Shown here: piece after piece, positions 12,668 through 23,549 of the stretch
How the letters are laid out: each line of letters begins with the position of its first letter
Numbering within the stretch: the first letter of the stretch is position 1
Assembly (NCBI GenBank): GCA_003135255.1
Contig: PLAX01000180.1
Span: forward strand, 1-38,248
Direction of reading: 5' to 3'
Source of the DNA: Candidatus Dormiibacterota bacterium
GTDB taxonomy: Bacteria > Chloroflexota > Dormibacteria > Aeolococcales > Aeolococcaceae
DNA: 38,248 bases
Notes under the pieces: generated by a model
Database searches by the model: none
Told to the model about the DNA's origin: nothing
The model's input: the letters and a program-made list of their open reading frames with translations, nothing else
Made by a program: the position numbers and the translations under genes

Positions 12668-13374
12668 CGGAAGCGAAGGCCTTCGTGCAGCGCACCCTCA
12701 TCGTCGCCGAGATGCAGGGCCGCCAGCTCCTCCGCCGGCGGCTCGCCCTCGCCATCCTGGTCGCGCTCCCGGTCGCCCTCTACCTTGCGATGCTGAGCCA
12801 GAGCAAGGAGAACGCGATCGAGTTCGGCGCCCTGGGCATGAGCTGGTCGGTGGCCTGTGCGGCCCTCTTCGCGGTGCTGGCGGCGCGGGAGGCCGAGCCG
12901 CGGCTGGTGCTCATCGGCTTCCGTCCGGCCGAGCTGATGCTCGGACGCTTCCTGCTCCTGCTCGGCGGGGGCACTGCGTTCGCCGCGCTGGTCGGGGTGG
13001 CGATGATGCTGGCGTCCTCTCCGGTCTCGGTCGCCGCGCTCTTCGGCTCGTGCCTGCTGGTCCCCCCGATCGCCGTCTCCCTGGGCCTCGCGGTGGCCGC
13101 CGTCCTGCCCCATGACCTGGAGGGGACGCTGGTGATCATTGGCCTGGTGGGCATCCAGCTGGCCCTCAGCGGGGGGGCGTGGGTCAACGGCATCCTCCCC
13201 ATGAACGGCCCCATCCAGCTCGCCTACCTGGCGGGCGGCTTCCCCGCGGACCCGGTGGGCCTGATGCTCGCGCACAGCTTCGTGTACGTGGTCGCGCTGC
13301 TCGCCATCGCCGCCGCCGGCTGGTCGCTGCGGGTTCGGGTCCGGCGCGGGCGGCCGGCAGCGCCGGCTCAGTGA
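12664..13374 (+). CDS. ABC-2 type transporter permease
   Basis: About 236 aa with around six hydrophobic segments. It is translationally coupled to the ATPase, with a GTG at 12664 inside GGAGGTGA. The track ORF starts earlier (12538) inside the ATPase gene. Confidence 0.7.
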   Translation: MTEAKAFVQRTLIVAEMQGRQLLRRRLALAILVALPVALYLAMLSQSKENAIEFGALGMSWSVACAALFAVLAAREAEPRLVLIGFRPAELMLGRFLLLLGGGTAFAALVGVAMMLASSPVSVAALFGSCLLVPPIAVSLGLAVAAVLPHDLEGTLVIIGLVGIQLALSGGAWVNGILPMNGPIQLAYLAGGFPADPVGLMLAHSFVYVVALLAIAAAGWSLRVRVRRGRPAAPAQ

Positions 13375-14294
13375 GCGGCGGGATCCCGGAGGGCGAGCAC
13401 CTCCCTCGCCAGCCGCTCCTCGCCCTGCGCGCCCGCCATCACGATGTCGAGAACGTGGGGGCTCATGCGCAGCCGGGCGACGGCGTCTGACAGCTCGCGG
13501 TCGGCCGCGTCCAGGACAAAACCGGAGGCCAGCCCGGCGTAGTGGTGCGCCACCCCGAGGGCGGTGGGCTCCTCGCCGAGCTGCGCCATCAGGGCAACCG
13601 TCGGGCCCTTCAGCGCGCGGCCCCCGATGATCGGGGCGATGGCGATCACGCGCTCCCTCTCCAGGTGAGGGCCAATCAGGGCGGTGATCGGGTCCACGCT
13701 GAGCAGAGGGTTGGACGGGCCGATCACCACCAGATCCGCCGCGCGGACCGCCTGCACCGCGGCCGGCGCCGGCACCGCAGCCTCCAGGCCCTCGAAGTGC
13801 AGGCCGCGGACCGGCGGCTCGCAGCGCTTGCCGACGAACCACTCCTGGAAGCTCAGCTCACCGGCGTCGGTCGCGACCCGGGTGCGCACCGGGTCGTCGC
13901 TCATCGGGATGACGGCCGCGTTCAGGCCCAGCCGCCGGCCGATCTCCGCGACCGCCTCCGTGAGGGTCATCCCCCGCCGCCGCAGGGAGGCCCGCAGGAG
14001 GTGGAGGCCAAGGTCGCGATCGCCCAGCCCAAACCAGGCCGGCTCACCGAGCAGACCGAGCATCTCGAGGGCGTGGAAGCTCTCGTCACGAACTCCGAAC
14101 CCCGCGTCGGTGTTGAAGATGCCGGCAAGCCGGTAGAGGACGGCATCGGTGTCCGGACAGACCAGCAGCCCCCACATCTCCTCGTCGTCGGCGGTGTTGG
14201 TGATCACGCTGAGCTCTCCTGGAGCCAGGGCCCGCGCCAGCCCGCAGGCCAGCCGGGCGGCGCCGGTCCCTCCGGCCAGGACCGTAACCCTCAC
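13368..14294 (-). CDS. cofD: 2-phospho-L-lactate transferase (LPPG:FO transferase, CofD/FbiA)
   Basis: VTVLAGGTGAARLACGLA...ITNTADDEEMWGLLVCPDTDAVLYRLAG matches the CofD N-terminus. The GTG at 14294 lies 4 nt after the cofE stop. An alternative ATG at 14345 would overlap cofE. Confidence 0.88.
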   Translation of the reverse strand: MRVTVLAGGTGAARLACGLARALAPGELSVITNTADDEEMWGLLVCPDTDAVLYRLAGIFNTDAGFGVRDESFHALEMLGLLGEPAWFGLGDRDLGLHLLRASLRRRGMTLTEAVAEIGRRLGLNAAVIPMSDDPVRTRVATDAGELSFQEWFVGKRCEPPVRGLHFEGLEAAVPAPAAVQAVRAADLVVIGPSNPLLSVDPITALIGPHLERERVIAIAPIIGGRALKGPTVALMAQLGEEPTALGVAHHYAGLASGFVLDAADRELSDAVARLRMSPHVLDIVMAGAQGEERLAREVLALRDPAAH

Positions 14295-14298
14295 CGGA

Positions 14299-15051
14299 TC
14301 ACCGGAAGAGGTCCAGGTCGGCGGTGCGCACCAGCTCCTGTCCACTGCCGGCGGGGCCTTCGAGTGCCAGCCCGCGAACGACCACCGCGGGGATCCGCCG
14401 GGTCTTGCCCATGACCATCTCGGCGGCCGCGGCGATCTCGTCGGCGACGGCCACCACGGTGGCGTGCAGGGGCATGCCGAAGTCGTCGGGGCTTCCCCGG
14501 TAGTCGACGGTGGCCGGCATCCCAGCCACCCCCAGGGCGACGTTGCAGAGGCCGACCCGCCAGGGGCGGCCGAAGGTGTCGCTGATCACCACCCCGACAT
14601 CCGCCCCCGTCATCTCGGCGATGCGCCGGCGCAGCCCCTCCGCGCTCCGGTCGCAGTCCTCCGGCAGGAGGCAGGCCACGTCCGCCCCGGGCACGTTGGA
14701 CCGGTCGACGCCGGCGTTGGCACAGACGAATCCGTGTCGGGTCTCGACGATCAGGACGCGATCCGCGCGGACCACGCGGACGCTCTCGTCGAGGACGACC
14801 TGGACCATGCGCGGGTCGGCGTGCAGCTGCTCGGCCAGCTCTTGCGCCCGGGGGCTCGGCGCCACCGCGGCGAGGCTGCGCAGCCTCCCCTCCGCCTTGG
14901 AGACCACCTTCTGGGCCACCACCACGATGTCGCCGGAGCGGAGGGGGGCGGCTCGCTCCGCGATCAGCCTGCCCAGGTCGTCGCCACTCGCGATCTCGGG
15001 CAGACCCTCGATGCCGTGGAGCTCGAGCCCGCCGGCCTGTCCGCCGGTCAC
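14299..15051 (-). CDS. cofE: Coenzyme F420-0:L-glutamate ligase (stand-alone CofE, no nitroreductase-like domain)
   Basis: 250 aa. LPEIASGDDLGRLIAE...GDIVVVAQKVVSKAEGR...NAGVDRSNV...ISDTFGRPWR are typical CofE motifs. The GTG start overlaps the cofC stop (GTGA). Confidence 0.88.
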   Translation of the reverse strand: MTGGQAGGLELHGIEGLPEIASGDDLGRLIAERAAPLRSGDIVVVAQKVVSKAEGRLRSLAAVAPSPRAQELAEQLHADPRMVQVVLDESVRVVRADRVLIVETRHGFVCANAGVDRSNVPGADVACLLPEDCDRSAEGLRRRIAEMTGADVGVVISDTFGRPWRVGLCNVALGVAGMPATVDYRGSPDDFGMPLHATVVAVADEIAAAAEMVMGKTRRIPAVVVRGLALEGPAGSGQELVRTADLDLFR

Positions 15052-15668
15052 TCGGTTTCTCCCGTGGCGGCCCGCCAGCGGTCCAGGGTGGCCAGGTCAT
15101 CCGGCTCGTCGAGGTCAAGGGCCAGTGCCGGCTCCCGGTGGACGATCAGCTCCCGCCCCCGCCGCCTCGCCTCGGCGGCGAAGCGGGGGAGGGATGCCTC
15201 CCCGAACTGCAGGTCGAAGTCGCCGATGGGGCGCAGGTAGAGGGCATTGGTGCCCTCGCGGCCGAGCGCCGGAGCCACCACCGCGACCGGCCCCTCGACC
15301 GTCCCCGCATGGTCGAGGAGGCGGCGCAGGCTGCCCGCATCGACGAGGGGGAGATCGGAGCTGAGCACCAGGCAGCCGGAGCCTCCCCGGGCGAGCACCT
15401 CGGCCAGGCCGCGTTCCGCGGCACGGTTCTGACCCGCGGGGTGCTCCTCGACGAGAGCCTCCGCCCCGCACCGCCGGGCCAGGTTGGCCGCTCCCGGGCC
15501 GCCGCAGACTGCAATGGTGTCAGCCACTTCCCGTGCGGCACCCAGCGCCCGGACCGCGCACTCCTCGGCGAGGCGCAGGCGCTCGGCGGCCGAGAGGGCG
15601 GCGGCGAGGCGGGTCTTCGCCGTGCCGGGCTCCTTGATCAGCACGACGATCTGCGCCGCTTGTCCCAT
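15048..15668 (-). CDS. cofC: 2-phospho-L-lactate / phosphoenolpyruvate guanylyltransferase (CofC/FbiD)
   Basis: 206 aa from the ATG at 15668. IVVLIKEPGTAKTRLAAALSAAERLRLAE...LVLSSDLPLV...GTNAL matches CofC/FbiD. The upstream part of the 426-aa track ORF is antisense to the chlI-like gene and was discarded. Confidence 0.8.
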   Translation of the reverse strand: MGQAAQIVVLIKEPGTAKTRLAAALSAAERLRLAEECAVRALGAAREVADTIAVCGGPGAANLARRCGAEALVEEHPAGQNRAAERGLAEVLARGGSGCLVLSSDLPLVDAGSLRRLLDHAGTVEGPVAVVAPALGREGTNALYLRPIGDFDLQFGEASLPRFAAEARRRGRELIVHREPALALDLDEPDDLATLDRWRAATGETE

Positions 15669-15776
15669 CCACCGGACTCTAGACAGCAGGGGTGATGGGG
15701 TGGATGCAGCCACTGGATGAGTCCGGTCGCTCCGAGGTGGGGTGAGCCGAGCGCGGCTGAGCCGCGCCGGCGAGGG

Positions 15777-16960: not shown

Positions 16961-17923
16961 GTGGACGCCGCCACCCGCTCGACCCAGCTCCCGTCGGCGG
17001 GTGTCGAGCCTCCGTCGGGGCTCCAGCATCGTCTCGTCCACGGCGACCAGGAGGCCGTGGTCGCCGAGGTCGGCGCGACCCTCCGCGCCTACACGGTGAG
17101 CGGGCGGCCGGTGATCCTCGGCTTTGACGTGACCGAACCGGCGACCAACGCCCAGGGTCAGACGCTGTTGCCATGGCCCGGGCGCGTCGGCAACGGCCGG
17201 TATCGGTGGCAGGGCGTCGACCACCAGCTCCCCCTCGATGAGGCCGGGTTGACCAACGCCATCCACGGGCTGGTCCGCTGGGCGAACTGGACGGCCGATG
17301 CCCCCGCCACCGACCGCGTGGCGATGCGCCACCGGCTCCATCCCCGTGACGGCTACCCCTTCTGCCTGGACCTGATGGCGACCTACGCGCTCGACGACGG
17401 CGGCCTCCGCGTGACCCTCACGGGGACCAACCTCTCCGGGGTACCCGCCCCCTACGGAGCCGGCTCCCACCCCTATCTGGCGGTGGATGGCGCTCTGGTC
17501 GACGGCTGGCGGCTCACGGTCCCGGCGGAGACCCGGCTGCGCACCGATTCGCGGATGCTGCCGACCGGCAGGGAACCGGTGGCCGGCACGGAGTTCGACT
17601 TCCGGGAACCGCGCGTGATCGGGCACACTCAGCTCGACACCGCCTTCACCGACCTGGTCCGCGATCCCGACGGTCTCGCCCGGGTCTCGGTGGAGGCCCC
17701 GGACGGGCGGCGGCTCGTCCTCTGGTCTGACCGCGCCTGCCCCTGGCTGGTGCTCTTCAGCGGGGATTCCATGCGGCCCGCCGAGCGGCGGAGCGGGCTC
17801 GCCGTGGAGCCGATGACCTGCCCACCCGACGCCTTCCGGAGCGGCGAGGATGTGATCGCGTTGCAGCCCGGTGAGACCACCACCGCGAGCTGGGGGATCG
17901 ACGTCACCGGCTTCCGCGGCTGA
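16961..17923 (+). CDS. Aldose 1-epimerase (galactose mutarotase-like) family protein
   Basis: AVVAEVGATLRAYTVSGRPVILGF...LLPWPGRVGNGRY...NAIHGLVRW...GAGSHPYL...LVLWSD...AVEPMTCPPDAF are typical of the family. The GTG at 16961 lies 1 nt after the TAG stop (16957-16959) of the chlI-like gene. The exact start is uncertain. Confidence 0.8.
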   Translation: MDAATRSTQLPSAGVEPPSGLQHRLVHGDQEAVVAEVGATLRAYTVSGRPVILGFDVTEPATNAQGQTLLPWPGRVGNGRYRWQGVDHQLPLDEAGLTNAIHGLVRWANWTADAPATDRVAMRHRLHPRDGYPFCLDLMATYALDDGGLRVTLTGTNLSGVPAPYGAGSHPYLAVDGALVDGWRLTVPAETRLRTDSRMLPTGREPVAGTEFDFREPRVIGHTQLDTAFTDLVRDPDGLARVSVEAPDGRRLVLWSDRACPWLVLFSGDSMRPAERRSGLAVEPMTCPPDAFRSGEDVIALQPGETTTASWGIDVTGFRG

Positions 17924-18111
17924 CCGGACGCCGCCGCGGCGACCCCCTATTTGAATCCGCACAGCCCCTCGTGGAAGTCGCCGGTCGTGATCCAGCGCTC
18001 GATCACCAGGTCGACCATGGCGTCGTCGACCTCGGCCGCACCCAGAGTGCGGGCGTTGGCAAGTTCCCTCTACGCGACCATCCCCTCGAGCGGGCTCGCG
18101 GTGGTCCTCCG

Positions 18112-18519
18112 GTGAGCGCGGGGCTCGCGCTGGGAGCGGCCGGCCCGTCGGGGGCGGCCGGCGTGCTGGTCACCGTCCATGAGCGGCTGGGCTACGCGTT
18201 CCTGATCGTCCTCGCCGCCGGGCTCGTCCTCGCCCTCCTGGCCGTCCGGGATGTGCGGCGTCTGCCCACCGTCCGCGCCTACCTCTGGCTCGCCGTGGCG
18301 GCCCTCGTGCTGCAGGGGATCGCCGGCATCAGCCTGCTCCTCGCCGGCGAGCGCCCCGACGAGGGGCTCCATCTCATGTACGGCCCGCTCGCGCTGGTCT
18401 CCCTCCCCCTCACCGTCCTCTTTGCCCGTGGATGGGCGCCGCGACGGGAGGCGTGGACGTTCGCCGCCGGCTTCCTCGTGGCGCTTCTCTTGGCCATCCG
18501 GGCCCTCATGACCGGCTGA
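18112..18519 (+). CDS. Small hypothetical integral membrane protein (about 4 TM helices)
   Basis: There are four hydrophobic segments: LGYAFLIVLAAGLVLALLAV, AYLWLAVAALVLQGIAGISLLLAG, LHLMYGPLALVSLPLTVLFA and AWTFAAGFLVALLLAIRALM. The start is uncertain, with GTG candidates at 17971, 18112 and 18163. No family recognised. Confidence 0.55.
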   Translation: MSAGLALGAAGPSGAAGVLVTVHERLGYAFLIVLAAGLVLALLAVRDVRRLPTVRAYLWLAVAALVLQGIAGISLLLAGERPDEGLHLMYGPLALVSLPLTVLFARGWAPRREAWTFAAGFLVALLLAIRALMTG

Positions 18520-18650
18520 TCGCGCCCTTCTGACGCCGGCTGCCCCGCTGGAGCCCCGACCCGGTCGCGACCTGAGCGCGGCGGATGTTTGCGAGACCGT
18601 CACGGATGGGCAGCAGCCATGTCGTATGGCCGGCCTAGTGTCAGGGTGCC

Positions 18651-20450
18651 ATGTCTGCATCCGCGCACCGCCGCCGGCTCCGGCCCTGGCAGGTGCTCAC
18701 CACCTGCCTGGTCGCCATCGTGGTCGGCATCGGGGTGGCCGGTGGGGGCGTGCTCGGCGCCTGGCAGGGCCTGAGCGAGAACGCGACCAACATGGTGACC
18801 GCGGCCGCCGCCGGAGGCGTGCCGGTGACCTCCGTTCACTGTAGTGGCCTTTCGCCCGCCTACCCCACCACCTGCACCGACACCCAGGGGACGGTGACCA
18901 TCTCCTGGACCGCGGTGACCGGCAGCACCGGGATCACCGTGGAGCGGGCGACCTCACCGACCGGCACTTACTCGACGATCGCGACCCTGGCCGGCACGGC
19001 GACCAGCTACACGGACACCCCTGTCACCGCCACCTACAACACCCAGTACTACTACGAGGTCTTCTCCGGCGCCGCGGGATGGGCGTCGGCGGCCGACGTC
19101 GACATGGCGCTCTCGCTGCCCCCGGCCGGAGGCACCGATGACACCGTGGGCACCGGGGGCACCCCCTTCAGCCCCGCCAACATCATCGCGATGGCCACCG
19201 CCGGCGGCACCCCCTACACCACCACCACGGATTGGGGGGCGAGCGGCGGCCCGGTGGTCGGGGGCCAGCAGGTCGATGGGGTCAGCTGCGTCTCCGCCAG
19301 CCAGTGCTGGGTCGCCACCCAGAGCGGTGACATCTGGATGAGCACAAACGGCGGCTATGGCTGGGCCCAGCAGACCGTTCCCGGCACCGCGGCGCTCGGG
19401 GCGATCGACTTCCCCACCGCCACCGCCGGCTGGGCGGTGGGGGCGGGGGGCATCATCGACGCCACCACCAACGGCGGCACCACCTGGGTGGCGCAGACCT
19501 CGGGCACCGCCCAGGCGCTCGACGGGGTGAGCTGCGTCTCCGCGACCCAGTGCTGGGTCGTCGGGGCGAACGGCGTCATCCTGGGGACCGTCAACGGGGG
19601 CACCACCTGGACGTCAGAGACCTCCGGCACCACCCAGCTCCTTGCCGCCGTGAGCTGCGTCTCGACCACCCACTGCTGGGCGGTGGGCAACCAGGGCGTC
19701 ATCGTGGCGACCGCCAACGGCGGCACCACCTGGGGCGCCGAGACGAGCGGCGTCAACGGGAACCTCACCGGGGTGAGCTTCGTCAATGCCAACGACGGAT
19801 GGGTGGTGGGTCAGAACGGGGTCCTCCGGGTGACCGTCAACGGCGGGACCACCTGGACGGCACAGACAGCGGGAACCGGCCAGAGCCTCGATGCGGTGAG
19901 CATGGTCAGCGCCACCACCGGCTGGGCGGTCGGGGTGGGCGGGACCATCCTCGCCACCACCAATGGCGGCACCACCTGGACGGAGCAGGGCGCCGGCATC
20001 AACCAGCCCATCAATGCCATCAGCGCCGTCAACGCCTCGGACGCGATGGTCGGCCTCACTCCGGGAGGAGGGACGCCCAGCATCCTGACCACCACCAACG
20101 GGGGCGCCAGCTGGGTCCTGCCCTCCAACCAGTATGTGCAGTGGACCTTCGGTCCCATCGTGGCCACCGGGGCGCCGGTCACCTCGGCGGTGGTCACCCT
20201 GGTAGACCAGGCCAGCCAGTCCCCCAGCTCGACCGCCCAGACCTACCTGCTGGTCTCGGCCAACGCGGGATCGAGCTGGACGCCCTTCGTGATCGCCAGC
20301 CCGACCGCCAACCTGGCCACCCAGACCGTGGCCGTCGGCTCCGTCATCGGCAGCGCGGCCGCAGTCTCGGGGATGGAGCTGCGCTACGTCATCAGCGACG
20401 GCAGCGGCTTCACGAGCACCTTCGACCTGGTCCACGTCGACATCAACTGA
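18651..20450 (+). CDS. Membrane-anchored or secreted protein: N-terminal signal anchor, FN3-like domain, 7-blade Asp-box/BNR (Ycf48-like) beta-propeller, C-terminal ~105-aa domain
   Basis: 599 aa.
- The N-terminus is an RRRLR basic patch plus a hydrophobic helix.
- [43 protein letters not shown]...YYYEV is FN3-like.
- There are seven roughly 41-aa repeats, each ending in [ST]xNGGxTW (an Asn variant of the SxDxGxTW Asp-box).
- The C-terminal domain is unrecognised. Confidence 0.85.
19270..20126 (+). repeat. Intragenic tandem repeat (7 propeller blades, 123-nt register)
   Basis: The Asn codon of the NGG(T/Y/A)(T/G/S)W motif falls at 19347, 19470, 19593, 19716, 19839 and 19962, an exact 123-nt spacing. 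The seventh is at 20097, which is +135 nt. Confidence 0.9.
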
Positions 20451-20560
20451 CCCTGACGGAGCGAGGCGCGGAGCCCAGGGCTCCGGTCCGGAGCGGAGGG
20501 GCGGCCGGCACCGGCACCCGTGCCGAGGGCGCGGACGCCCGGTTCGAATACGATGCCGCG

Positions 20561-22372
20561 GTGCCCTCGGTGCTTCGCGACGACATCCGCAACTTCTCGA
20601 TCATCGCCCACATCGACCACGGGAAGTCGACGCTGGCCGATCGCCTGCTGGAGGTGACCGGGACGGTCGCCCTCCGGGACATGCAGGATCAGCTCCTCGA
20701 CACCCTCGACCTGGAGCGGGAGCGGGGCATCACCATCAAGGCCCAGGCGGTGCGGATGGAGTACACAGCCCGGGACGGGCGTCCCTACGAGCTCAACCTC
20801 ATCGACACGCCCGGCCACGTGGACTTCACCTACGAGGTGTCGCGCGCCCTGGCCGCCTGCGAGGGCGCGGTCCTGGTCGTCGACGCCACCCAGGGGATCG
20901 AGGCCCAGACCCTGGCCAACGTCGACCTGGCCCTCGAGCACGACCTGGAGATCATCCCGGTCATCAACAAGATCGATCTCCCCGCCGCCGACCCCGAGCT
21001 GGTGCGCCGCGAGATCGAGGAGGTGATCGGTCTTCCCGGCTCCGGTGCCATCCTTGCCTCGGCCCGCCAGGGGATCGGGATCGAGGAGGTCCTCGAGGCG
21101 GTGGTCGCCCGGGTGCCGCCCCCGCACGGCGACCCCGAAGCGCCCCTGACAGCCCTGATCTTCGACGCCAAGTACGACGCCTACCGGGGGGTGGTCGTCT
21201 ACGTCCGGGTCATGGACGGCTCCGTCCGCCCCGGTGAGCGGATCCGGATGATGGCGACGGAGAAGGAGTTCGTCGTCGACGAGGTGGGGGTGTTCCGGCC
21301 GGTGATGACCCCCACCGACGGGTTGACGACCGGCGAGGTCGGCTACCTGATCGCCTCGATCAAGAACGTCCGGGACTCCAAGGTCGGCGACACCGTGACC
21401 CTGGCCGACCGCCCCGCCGCCGCGGCGCTCCCCGGCTATCGCCACGTCACGCCCATGGTCTACGCGGGCATCTTCCCGATCGACTCGGACGACGTCCAGG
21501 AGCTGAAGGAGGCGCTCGAGAAGCTCAACCTCAACGACGCCTCGCTGGTCTGGGAGCCGGAGTCCTCGGCGGCCCTCGGCTTCGGCTTCCGCTGTGGCTT
21601 CCTCGGCCTCCTCCACATGGAGATCGTCCAGGAGCGGCTGGAGCGCGAGTTCAACCTCGCCCTGATCACCACCGCTCCGACGGTCGCGTATCGGGTCCGG
21701 CTGCGCAGCGGCGAGGTCATCCCCGTGGACAACCCGGAGAGGCTGCCCGACCCCTCGGCCATCGACGAGATCGAGGAGCCCCGCTGCACCGCGACCATCC
21801 TGGTGCCGAGCGCCCAGGTCGGCACCGTCATGGAGCTCTGCCAGGAGCGGCGTGGCGAGTTCCGCAACCTGGAGCACCAGGCCGGCGACCGGGTGGCCCT
21901 GACCTACGACCTCCCCCTCGGCGAGATCATCCACGACTTCTACGACCAGCTCAAGTCGCGGAGCCGGGGCTACGCGTCGCTCAACTACGAGCTGACCGGG
22001 TTCCGGGCCGAGCGGCTGGTCAAGCTCGACATCATGGTGGGAGGGCAGCGGGTCGACGCCCTCTCCATGATCGTCCACCGCGACCGGGCAAACCTCCACG
22101 GGCGCAAGCTCGCCGAGCGGCTCCGCAAGCTCATCCCCCGGCAGCTCTTCGAGGTTCCGATCCAGGCGGCGGTGGGCGGTAAGATCATCGCCCGCGAGAC
22201 GGTGTCGGCGATGCGCAAGGATGTCCTGGCCAAATGCTACGGTGGGGACATCACCCGCAAGCGCAAGCTGCTGGAGAAGCAGAAGGAGGGGAAGCGACGG
22301 ATGAAGCGGGTGGGCAGTGTGGAGATCCCCCAGGAGGCCTTCATGGCCGTCCTGCAGATGGACGAGGACTGA
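20561..22372 (+). CDS. lepA: Translation elongation factor 4 (LepA/EF4)
   Basis: [43 protein letters not shown] and a LepA-specific C-terminus ([23 protein letters not shown]) are present. I trimmed the 940-aa track ORF to the GTG at 20561, giving 603 aa. Confidence 0.95.
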
Positions 22373-22547: not shown

Positions 22548-23549
22548 ATGGCGTCCCTGTTGGGTCCCCCGCGCCCGGCCTCCCCGCGCCCGGTCTCCTC
22601 GCGCCCGGTGCGGTCAATGGCGGGACCCGGTCCCGCGGCCAACCTCGGCCCGATATGGACCCGAACCGACTACTACGCCCTCTCGGCCGTCACTGCGCTG
22701 GTGGTCCTGGTCATCGGCCTCGTCATCGGCCTGACCGACACCACCAGCACCACCGTGCAGAAGAACCCGGCCCCGACCGCAACCAGCTTCACGGTGGCGA
22801 GCGGCGACGGCAAGACGCTCATCTGCGGCGCCAACGCCGCCATCCAAGTCGGCGGCCAGGAGGCTCACATCGCTGCGATCGACGGCGATCAGGTCACGCT
22901 TGCGGCACCGCTCAGCTCGGTGCCCGCCTCCGGCGCGACCGTCAGCCAGAGCACGCTGGGCCCCGCCACGGTCGACACCTGCGCGGCGGTGGCGGCCAGC
23001 CCGGCACCCACCACCACCCAGTTCACCCTCGCCGGCGGGGCCGGCGTGGACTTCGTCGCCGCCGGCATCCTCGTCGACGGCCAGCAGGCGACGGTCAAGT
23101 CCGTCGACACCACCACCTACCGGATCAGCCTCTCGAGCCCGCTCGCGTCGCCGCCCGCCGCCGGTACCCCGGTCACGCAGCAGCTGTACACGACCGGCAG
23201 CCTGATCGGGGGCATCGTCGGCCTGGCGATCTCCGAGATCGCCATCGTGCTGCTCGCGGTGGCCGCGCTGGTGGCGCGCCCGATGGCTGCCAGGCTCCGC
23301 AGGAAGGACCGTCCGCGGGTCGTGGAGGTGCTTGTCTTCGGTGCCATGGTGGCGGTGGTCGACACCCTCGTCTACTACCTGGAGGTGAGCGCGCTCGGCT
23401 CCACGACCGGCACCGGGGTGGCGGTGGCCGAGCTCGCCGCCGCGGCCTCCGGCTTCGTGCTGGTCCCGTTCGCCTTCCCGATCATCGCGCGCTGGTTCCG
23501 CAGGCCTCCGCGGCAACCGCGGGGGATCCCGGGACCGGCCGGCCGGTGA
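22548..23549 (+). CDS. Hypothetical multi-pass membrane protein with an internally duplicated extracytoplasmic module
   Basis: - The N-terminus is Pro/Arg-rich.
- TM1 is YYALSAVTALVVLVIGLVIGL.
- Two related modules of about 57 aa follow (approximately 22779-22949 and 23010-23183).
- About three more TM helices follow.
- GC3 bias is strong.
- The start is uncertain: ATG 22548, ATG 22617 or an upstream GTG. Confidence 0.6.
   Translation: MASLLGPPRPASPRPVSSRPVRSMAGPGPAANLGPIWTRTDYYALSAVTALVVLVIGLVIGLTDTTSTTVQKNPAPTATSFTVASGDGKTLICGANAAIQVGGQEAHIAAIDGDQVTLAAPLSSVPASGATVSQSTLGPATVDTCAAVAASPAPTTTQFTLAGGAGVDFVAAGILVDGQQATVKSVDTTTYRISLSSPLASPPAAGTPVTQQLYTTGSLIGGIVGLAISEIAIVLLAVAALVARPMAARLRRKDRPRVVEVLVFGAMVAVVDTLVYYLEVSALGSTTGTGVAVAELAAAASGFVLVPFAFPIIARWFRRPPRQPRGIPGPAGR

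Follow-up and report, generated by a model that had tools for sequence, protein, structure and literature searches.

Two neighbouring genes of a Dormibacterota contig: a β-propeller protein with a putative SipW/TasA-class N-terminus beside a small membrane protein that appears unrelated to it

Do two co-oriented genes that lie side by side in an uncultured bacterium form a system, and what does the larger of them encode? The question is raised by a stretch of 38,248 nucleotides (nt) from Candidatus Dormiibacterota bacterium (contig PLAX01000180.1 of assembly GCA_003135255.1; the whole stretch is called the window below), in which a gene for a small membrane protein (gene 1) is followed by a gene for a β-propeller protein (gene 2). 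A preliminary description, made from the sequence alone, treated them as an uncharacterised two-gene locus consisting of a four-helix protein and an anchored propeller protein. Both open reading frames (ORFs) were found to exist and to be conserved, and sequence, profile and fold searches agreed with that description in giving no functionally characterised family for either protein. The best explanation of the data as a whole, held with middling confidence, is that the two genes are unrelated: gene 1 would be stranded from a gene cluster, and gene 2 would encode an exported surface protein with an N-terminus of the SipW/TasA class.

Gene 2 (18651-20450; forward strand, as for all features below unless stated) encodes a protein of 599 amino acids (aa). 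More than 2,000 homologues were found; among them is a family of ~600-aa proteins that match over the full length at 55-87% identity. The length and the four-part make-up that had been proposed were confirmed, apart from the 'anchor', by the homologues and by an AlphaFold model built on 46 sequences (predicted local distance difference test, pLDDT, 86; predicted template modelling score, pTM, 0.77). The model predicts a helix at residues 12-36, a low-confidence stretch to about residue 58, and two β-sandwiches (residues 60-164 and 495-598) with seven blades of four strands each (about 206-492) between them. According to hydropathy, the model and hhalign, residues 1-36 (18651-18758) comprise a basic n-region and a hydrophobic core ending in GGGVLG, and residues 12-39 are the sole hydrophobic segment of the protein. 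An extended low-confidence segment follows (residues 37-58; 18759-18824; pLDDT 36-58), which is 72% conserved in the close family. The FN3-like module named in the preliminary description corresponds to a β-sandwich at residues 59-165 (18825-19145), seen in the model and in a match of residues 68-151 to the Fn3-like PDB entry 3mpc (E = 1e-6); at 76% identity, it is the best-conserved domain of the protein.

Residues 206-492 (19266-20126) were identified by Pfam, NCBIfam and Foldseek as a seven-bladed Asp-box (BNR) β-propeller of family PF14870. The seven regular blades, of 41 residues each, were present as described and all carry [ST]xNGGxxW, but the exact box [ST]xNGGxTW that had been ascribed to every blade occurs in five only. 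Blades 2-6 are mutually 46-63% identical, and a 123-nt tandem repeat is still detectable in the DNA at 19429-19867. A cysteine pair occurs in three blades; the propeller domain has one arginine and no lysine, and the ectodomain three arginines and no lysine. These cysteine pairs and the near-lack of basic residues fit an extracellular protein. The remaining residues (493-599 plus the stop codon; 20127-20450) form, according to the model and the alignment, a C-terminal β-sandwich with one Asp-box hairpin, in which the degenerate extra box SANAGSSW sits where it had been placed. The terminal HVDIN is invariant (H595, N599). When this domain was searched by PDB profile, Pfam, a separate AlphaFold model with Foldseek, and homologue search, weak similarities only were obtained (Ig-like, Reelin-subrepeat and sulfite-dehydrogenase Asp-box), and the homologue search did not find it in other architectures. 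Gene 2 is a lineage-specific architecture of a known propeller domain.

The propeller had been placed among Ycf48/BNR-type propellers, and this placement was supported by the PF14870 (PSII_BNR) score (77.6 bits; cut-off 27) and by Foldseek, in which the top matches were the Ycf48 structures 5ojr, 8am5 and 2xbg (template modelling scores 0.70-0.74, E = 1e-13); the best solved-structure match by sequence was likewise Ycf48. Ycf48, the photosystem II assembly factor also known as HCF136, shares with gene 2 a seven-bladed Asp-box β-propeller outside the cytoplasm. It binds D1 through six conserved arginines and docks at the extracytoplasmic face of a membrane complex (PMC10403576). Unlike Ycf48, the propeller of gene 2 has no six-arginine patch, its score of 77.5 bits is far from the 326-bit equivalog cut-off of NCBIfam NF010237, and FN3-like and C-terminal domains are added to it. 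No photosystem genes were seen in the window, and no functional study was found in the literature on non-photosynthetic Ycf48-like proteins. Another Foldseek match was dispase autolysis-inducing protein (DAIP; 6fhp), a secreted, protein-binding seven-bladed propeller from a high-GC Gram-positive bacterium, which differs from gene 2 in ranking far below Ycf48, in having a single domain and in sharing no context with it.

Distant homologues of gene 2, 41-45% identical, share its architecture down to the C-terminal HVDIN but lie in other surroundings. All four that were examined (loci L027, L028, L029 and L030) adjoin two or three genes for small secreted proteins (199-230 aa) and a peptidase gene. 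The peptidases pass the archaeal-type signal peptidase I model TIGR02228 (63-76.5 bits; cut-off 51.85), with SipW as the second-best match. In L030, where the propeller gene overlaps the gene before it, the first small protein (L030_201) passes TIGR04088, the NCBIfam model for SipW-cognate signal peptides (21.5 bits; cut-off 19), and carries the Pfam domain Peptidase_M73 (TasA/camelysin). The small TasA-like proteins have the N-terminal motif GFGGLSAWQVTTENDGNAF. When the N-termini of the propeller proteins were compared with those of the small proteins by hhalign, a match of 96.7% probability (E = 4e-10) was obtained, or 96.8% over residues 5-54, and it was restricted to this part of gene 2; another transmembrane N-terminus, used as a negative control, gave 34% and 0.2%. 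The FN3 region and the body of the TasA-like proteins are not homologous (hhalign, 0.3%). Long BLASTP alignments between the small proteins and the FN3 region were rejected: they vanished under composition correction and in hhalign, and were therefore composition artefacts.

A peptidase-based metagenome scan also yielded peat-derived clusters (L034, L036, L037 and L038; GC 0.70) with four tandem small genes and a SipW-like peptidase. With composition correction, BLASTP aligned L034_222 with P0047, a Dormibacteria propeller protein, at 54% identity over 48 aa (E = 5e-9). In an anchored comparison, the N-termini of the L034-type small proteins were identical to that of P0047 at 22 of 32 positions; therefore, propellers and small proteins of matched lineages vary together in the N-terminal module. 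By these comparisons, gene 2 (residues ~5-54) and the small TasA-like proteins have homologous N-termini. Two further features of the L034-type clusters were recorded: each of the four TasA-like genes (L034 5649-10561; also L036-L038) has its own conserved upstream element (TCTAGTGCATTTGA), and the SipW-like peptidase, of 455 aa, has a Pro/Ala-rich N-terminal extension of ~300 aa.

TasA of Bacillus subtilis polymerises through an N-terminal strand that is inserted into the next subunit; this donor-strand fibre system of TasA and TapA has so far been studied mainly in Bacillus, and archaeal bundling pili are a structural counterpart. The motif GGGVLG↓AW of gene 2 (arrow, cleavage site, predicted in gene 2) parallels GGGTWA↓AF of TasA: both have an aromatic residue at P2'. 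In TasA, the dedicated peptidase SipW cuts at VGGGTWA↓AF (PMC10269814). TapA shares the donor-strand sequence of TasA, is likewise cleaved by SipW and has been proposed as the source of the first donor strand (PMC9674648). The N-terminal 'anchor' of gene 2 is therefore probably wrongly so called, because it resembles a SipW-class signal peptide, with predicted cleavage before A37-W38, and residues 37-58 are probably a donor-strand-like segment, by analogy with TapA. By the same analogy, gene 2 would most likely be exported and cleaved near G36↓A37 by a dedicated archaeal-type signal peptidase encoded elsewhere, and the freed N-terminal strand (residues 37-50) would plug into a TasA-like subunit. 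The FN3 stalk, the seven-bladed propeller and the C-terminal β-sandwich would be displayed on the fibre or at its start, where they might act as a non-enzymatic binding head.

A close known parallel is TapA of the B. subtilis tapA-sipW-tasA operon, which, like gene 2, has an N-terminal module in common with fibre subunits (for gene 2, with the TasA-like small proteins). TapA is an accessory protein cleaved by a dedicated archaeal-type peptidase; for gene 2, cleavage and fibre association would follow by analogy. Unlike TapA, gene 2 has a body of FN3, propeller and β-sandwich with no sequence similarity to it beyond the N-terminal logic, and in this lineage it does not stand in an operon with a peptidase. 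The TIGR04088 and TasA-camelysin (Peptidase_M73) proteins are comparable in that the gene 2 motif GGG..G↓AW...EN..N resembles TasA GGGTWA↓AF and in that a neighbour of a distant gene 2 homologue passes both models; they differ in that the body of gene 2 is unrelated to the TasA jelly-roll and gene 2 itself has no TIGR04088 match.

Several results weigh against placing gene 2 in such a fibre system. Neither the window nor the ~20-kb Dormibacteria loci examined were found to contain a gene for a SipW-like peptidase or a TasA-like protein, so that the signal-peptide and donor-strand reading remains inferred. Residues 1-70 of gene 2 gave no TIGR04088 match at E <= 10, the small proteins of L027 and L028 also stay below that model, only one small protein passes Peptidase_M73, and none matches a solved TasA structure by sequence (PDB sequences). 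No taxon could be set for the L034-type clusters, and this propeller occurs in only 2 of 80 SipW-like metagenome loci. Moreover, recognition by the peptidase might by itself explain the N-terminal segment in common, which would then have no donor-strand role.

These points leave room for an alternative that is unlikely but deserves serious attention, namely that gene 2 is a type II membrane-anchored surface binding protein whose helix stays uncleaved, that it has no link to fibres and that its TasA-like similarity is a relic. In its favour, there is a single hydrophobic helix (12-36) behind a basic cytoplasmic stub, and neither a peptidase nor a TasA-like gene lies nearby in 20 Dormibacteria loci. 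PF14870 propellers are also part of many kinds of surface protein, combined with dockerin, cell-wall-binding domains or Por tails, and a survey of fibrillar adhesins lists them as ambiguous in function (PMC9210967). Against it stand the post-helix segment, which is better conserved (72%) than the blades and co-varies with the N-termini of lineage-matched small proteins, and the SipW/TasA-like clusters around all four distant homologues examined.

A link of gene 2 to SipW/TasA-type fibres is plausible. It is possible, and put forward here tentatively, that gene 2 defines a class of TapA-like accessory proteins. In Dormibacterota and uncultured lineages near them, a donor strand cleaved by SipW would attach the FN3 stalk, the Ycf48-like seven-bladed propeller and the β-sandwich head to fibres of the TasA type, built by donor-strand exchange. 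If so, the TasA/TapA fibre system would extend to an uncultured soil and peat phylum, TasA-type fibres could bear a large propeller head, and some of the proteins annotated as 'photosystem II assembly factor-like' in non-photosynthetic bacteria would gain a first functional context. To our knowledge, a propeller-tipped fibre of Gram-positive style has not been described, although no literature search was aimed at that point.

Whether the two genes belong together was examined by mapping two sets of neighbourhoods, one anchored on gene 1 (15 species-representative genomes) and the other on the propeller. Gene 1 and the propeller were directly adjacent in 8 of the 15 species-level loci; an MFS gene on the opposite strand lay between them in 6, and in L020 the propeller was absent and lepA directly followed gene 1. 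Conversely, L004 and L005 have a propeller before lepA and no gene 1. The slot before lepA holds 0, 1 or 2 propeller copies, with tandem duplicates in several loci. Among the distant relatives examined, those of gene 1 never adjoin propellers, and those of the propeller lie in SipW/TasA-like clusters and never beside gene 1. The two-gene locus of the preliminary description was therefore not supported, given the MFS interruption, the occurrence of each gene without the other, the different distant contexts and the separate upstream block of gene 2 described below. In L006, an extra minus-strand ORF lies between the propeller and lepA, judged by eye to be a putative ROK-type sugar kinase.

The original place of gene 1 was seen in the other genomes. 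In all 15 other Dormibacteria species loci, gene 1 lies directly 3' of a gene for a 220-aa protein, often with overlapping stop and start codons, in a conserved cluster with the order cytochrome b, CydA-like, 168-aa, 113-aa, ABC ATPase, ABC-2 permease, 247-aa lipoprotein, 220-aa and 135-aa (gene 1). The window departs from this pattern in that its upstream cluster has been replaced entirely. What is left of the 220-aa gene is a stretch of ~60 nt from its 3' end (the last ~20 codons), detected at 18053-18112 by tblastn with residues 201-220 of the L003 protein (55% identity) and by blastn (92% identity over 63 nt, extending into the start of gene 1). The rearrangement breakpoint lies at ~18050-18066, and an identical junction is present in the independent assembly L021. 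Ancestrally, gene 1 would have been the last, translationally coupled gene of a respiratory-type/ABC cluster, and to judge from these alignments it is the stranded last gene of that broken operon, cut off in this lineage. As to the cluster itself (L003 1-6869; also L005-L020), it is headed by a Rieske gene, ahead of cytochrome b, and its CydA-like protein of 487 aa in L003 matches only the N-terminal half of cytochrome bd subunit I. Five of the cluster genes (168-, 113-, 247-, 220- and 135-aa) are below every Pfam threshold, and the cluster is uncharacterised as a unit.

Gene 1 is open across 17971-18519. Its homologues are of 135 aa and start at the position equivalent to GTG 18112, and the GC content at third codon positions (GC3), which is 0.92 downstream, falls to 0.66 in the in-frame stretch that reaches back to 17971; therefore, the true start is GTG 18112. 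Of the 135-180 aa first given for the protein, homologue lengths and GC3 thus support 135 aa (18112-18519) and not the 182 aa of the long frame. The four hydrophobic helices were recovered by hydropathy (segments ~24-45, 55-80, 86-104 and 114-135), as were the histidines at helix boundaries, H23 (VHERLGY) and H87 (LHLMYG), which are invariant in the close family and lie at the outer ends of transmembrane helices 1 and 3. Loops 45-55 and 106-113 are positively charged, and by the positive-inside rule both histidines are predicted on the outer side. The gene is under purifying selection (dN/dS 0-0.24), even in the rearranged lineage of the window (0.18-0.22 in comparisons with relatives). By profile search, a wider family of 202 representatives (117-135 aa) was collected, which shares the two histidines, a G.RP loop and a C-terminal RA..TG; across 44 diverse members, H23 and H87 vary little or not at all. 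In two variants of gene 1 (L021 4397-4912; P0130), helix 2 and the outer loop are affected by in-frame deletions, of 11 and 7 residues; one of these variants comes from an assembly that shares the rearranged layout of the window, and they may be population variants or assembly errors.

The sole recurrent signal for the gene 1 family was a weak, sub-threshold one to COX15-CtaA (16 of 22 and 17 of 44 members; best E = 1e-5), and two homologues bear the JGI label 'heme A synthase'. Gene 1 itself scores 9.4 bits against Pfam PF02628 (COX15/CtaA; cut-off 29.9). PDB profiles gave nothing significant, the hypothetical membrane protein chain of 7qhm reaching only E = 0.06. The four-helix repeat of haem A synthase CtaA/COX15 resembles gene 1 in its four helices and two conserved histidines near the outer face; unlike it, gene 1 is a single bundle of 135 aa in another operon context. 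Distant relatives of gene 1 adjoin Rieske, cytochrome b and cytochrome c (bc-complex) genes, or cofD-cofC-cofE. Helices 1 and 3 carry H23 and H87 at their outer ends, an arrangement suggestive of a helix bundle that binds haem or a metal. Gene 1 probably encodes an accessory membrane protein of this binding type, belonging to a respiratory-type cluster. Against this assignment stands the fact that gene 1 reaches no family threshold and matches no solved structure.

Gene 2, in turn, has a region of its own in front of it. A non-coding block of 85 nt (18566-18650) was identified by locus alignment; it is conserved in all loci, whether gene 1, the opposite-strand MFS gene or the 220-aa gene precedes, and is far better conserved than gene 2 itself. 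Its core, CCTAGTGTCAG at 18634-18644, was found by motif counts per locus to occur, as CCTA[GC]TGTCAG, exactly once in each propeller-bearing Dormibacteria locus, 17 nt before the first propeller gene. The block has no Rfam match, and an RNA structure is weakly supported (consensus -9.3 kcal/mol; the compensatory changes all come from one clade split). Probably the block is a short leader or a promoter/operator that belongs to gene 2 itself; if it is a promoter, TAGTGT, 9 nt before the gene 2 ATG, may be its -10-like element, the other possibility being an operator. The core motif was not found before the TasA-like genes of the L034-type loci. Taken at face value, the alignment makes the propeller gene its own unit with its own control region. 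It also evolves differently from its neighbours: identity to the L003 counterpart is 62% for gene 2, 90% for gene 1 and 96% for lepA; dN/dS is 0.31-0.67 for gene 2 against 0.05-0.2 in the flanking genes; and dS of gene 2 is three to four times higher between near-identical genomes. Such fast evolution, together with the change in copy number, is compatible with an exposed binding head.

With these data, it is very improbable that genes 1 and 2 form a functional module, for example one in which a Ycf48-like assembly factor and a small membrane protein that binds haem act together on a respiratory complex. The two are co-oriented neighbours in 8 of 15 species loci with no terminator detected between them, both histidines of gene 1 are predicted to face outward, and Ycf48 does dock on the extracytoplasmic face of a membrane complex (PMC10403576). 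This idea is, however, already largely refuted by the neighbourhood data, in which either gene occurs without the other (gene 1 in L020; gene 2 in L004 and L005), an opposite-strand gene intervenes in 6 loci and distant relatives never co-occur; the separate upstream block, the single arginine against the six-arginine patch of Ycf48, and the variable copy number and 62% identity of the propeller against 90% for gene 1 also speak against it. Genes 1 and 2 are best regarded as unrelated, juxtaposed by local synteny and rearrangement, and not as a functional pair. Adjacency within one class of organisms is no evidence of a two-gene system here, and gene 1 belongs to a different, likewise uncharacterised, respiratory-type cluster.

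The window has a GC content of ~72%. At both the protein and the DNA level, it is closest to metagenome-assembled genomes from peat, bog and fen samples that bear the label Candidatus Dormibacteria or Dormibacterota. The local order is cofD, cofE, cofC (minus strand), an AAA+/Mg-chelatase-like gene, aldose 1-epimerase, gene 1 and gene 2, followed in order by lepA, a gene for a 282-aa protein, a HemN-like radical SAM gene, hrcA and dnaJ; the flanking aldose 1-epimerase and lepA had been correctly named before. GH74 enzymes need two propellers that form a cleft, and sialidases have a six-bladed fold with an arginine triad. That gene 2 is a glycan-active Asp-box propeller enzyme (GH74- or sialidase-like) is hardly credible: Foldseek lists the GH74 enzyme 6p2l after the Ycf48 matches and the window holds genes of sugar metabolism (GH77, UxaC and aldose epimerase), but the single seven-bladed propeller with its one arginine excludes both the GH74 and the sialidase design, no catalytic signature was recognised (as had been noted earlier), no glycoside-hydrolase Pfam or NCBIfam match was obtained, and relaxed or diversifying evolution is atypical for enzymes.

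Neither a σ70-type promoter nor an intrinsic terminator was found at 17700-20800, and hairpins 3' of gene 1 score no better than shuffled sequence. Rfam gave nothing real on the window, a sub-threshold AsrC match falling inside the lepA coding sequence. Antisense ORFs within gene 2 (19355-20242, minus strand) have GC3 values of 0.91-0.96, level with real genes, because of the Thr/Gly/Ala-rich codon pattern of the propeller; GC3 by itself is misleading in this genome. The cofD/cofE/cofC genes (13368-15700, minus strand) lie 2.4 kb upstream of gene 1, and P0148, a distant gene 1 relative (46% identity), is encoded directly upstream of cofD-cofC-cofE in unrelated contigs (L023 3184-6128; L024); this proximity could be chance or an old linkage. 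The 282-aa protein (22701-23546; the ORF start is maybe nearer 22650) directly follows lepA and is kept in all loci; its N-terminal transmembrane segment is followed by a Thr/Ala-rich ectodomain of ~140 aa and three C-terminal transmembrane segments, and Pfam gave no match. Its N-terminus is unrelated to the SipW-type N-termini (hhalign negative), which ruled it out as a further SipW-type substrate. Like gene 2, the 282-aa protein is fast-evolving, with dN/dS of ~0.5 and 70% identity against 90-96% for its neighbours.

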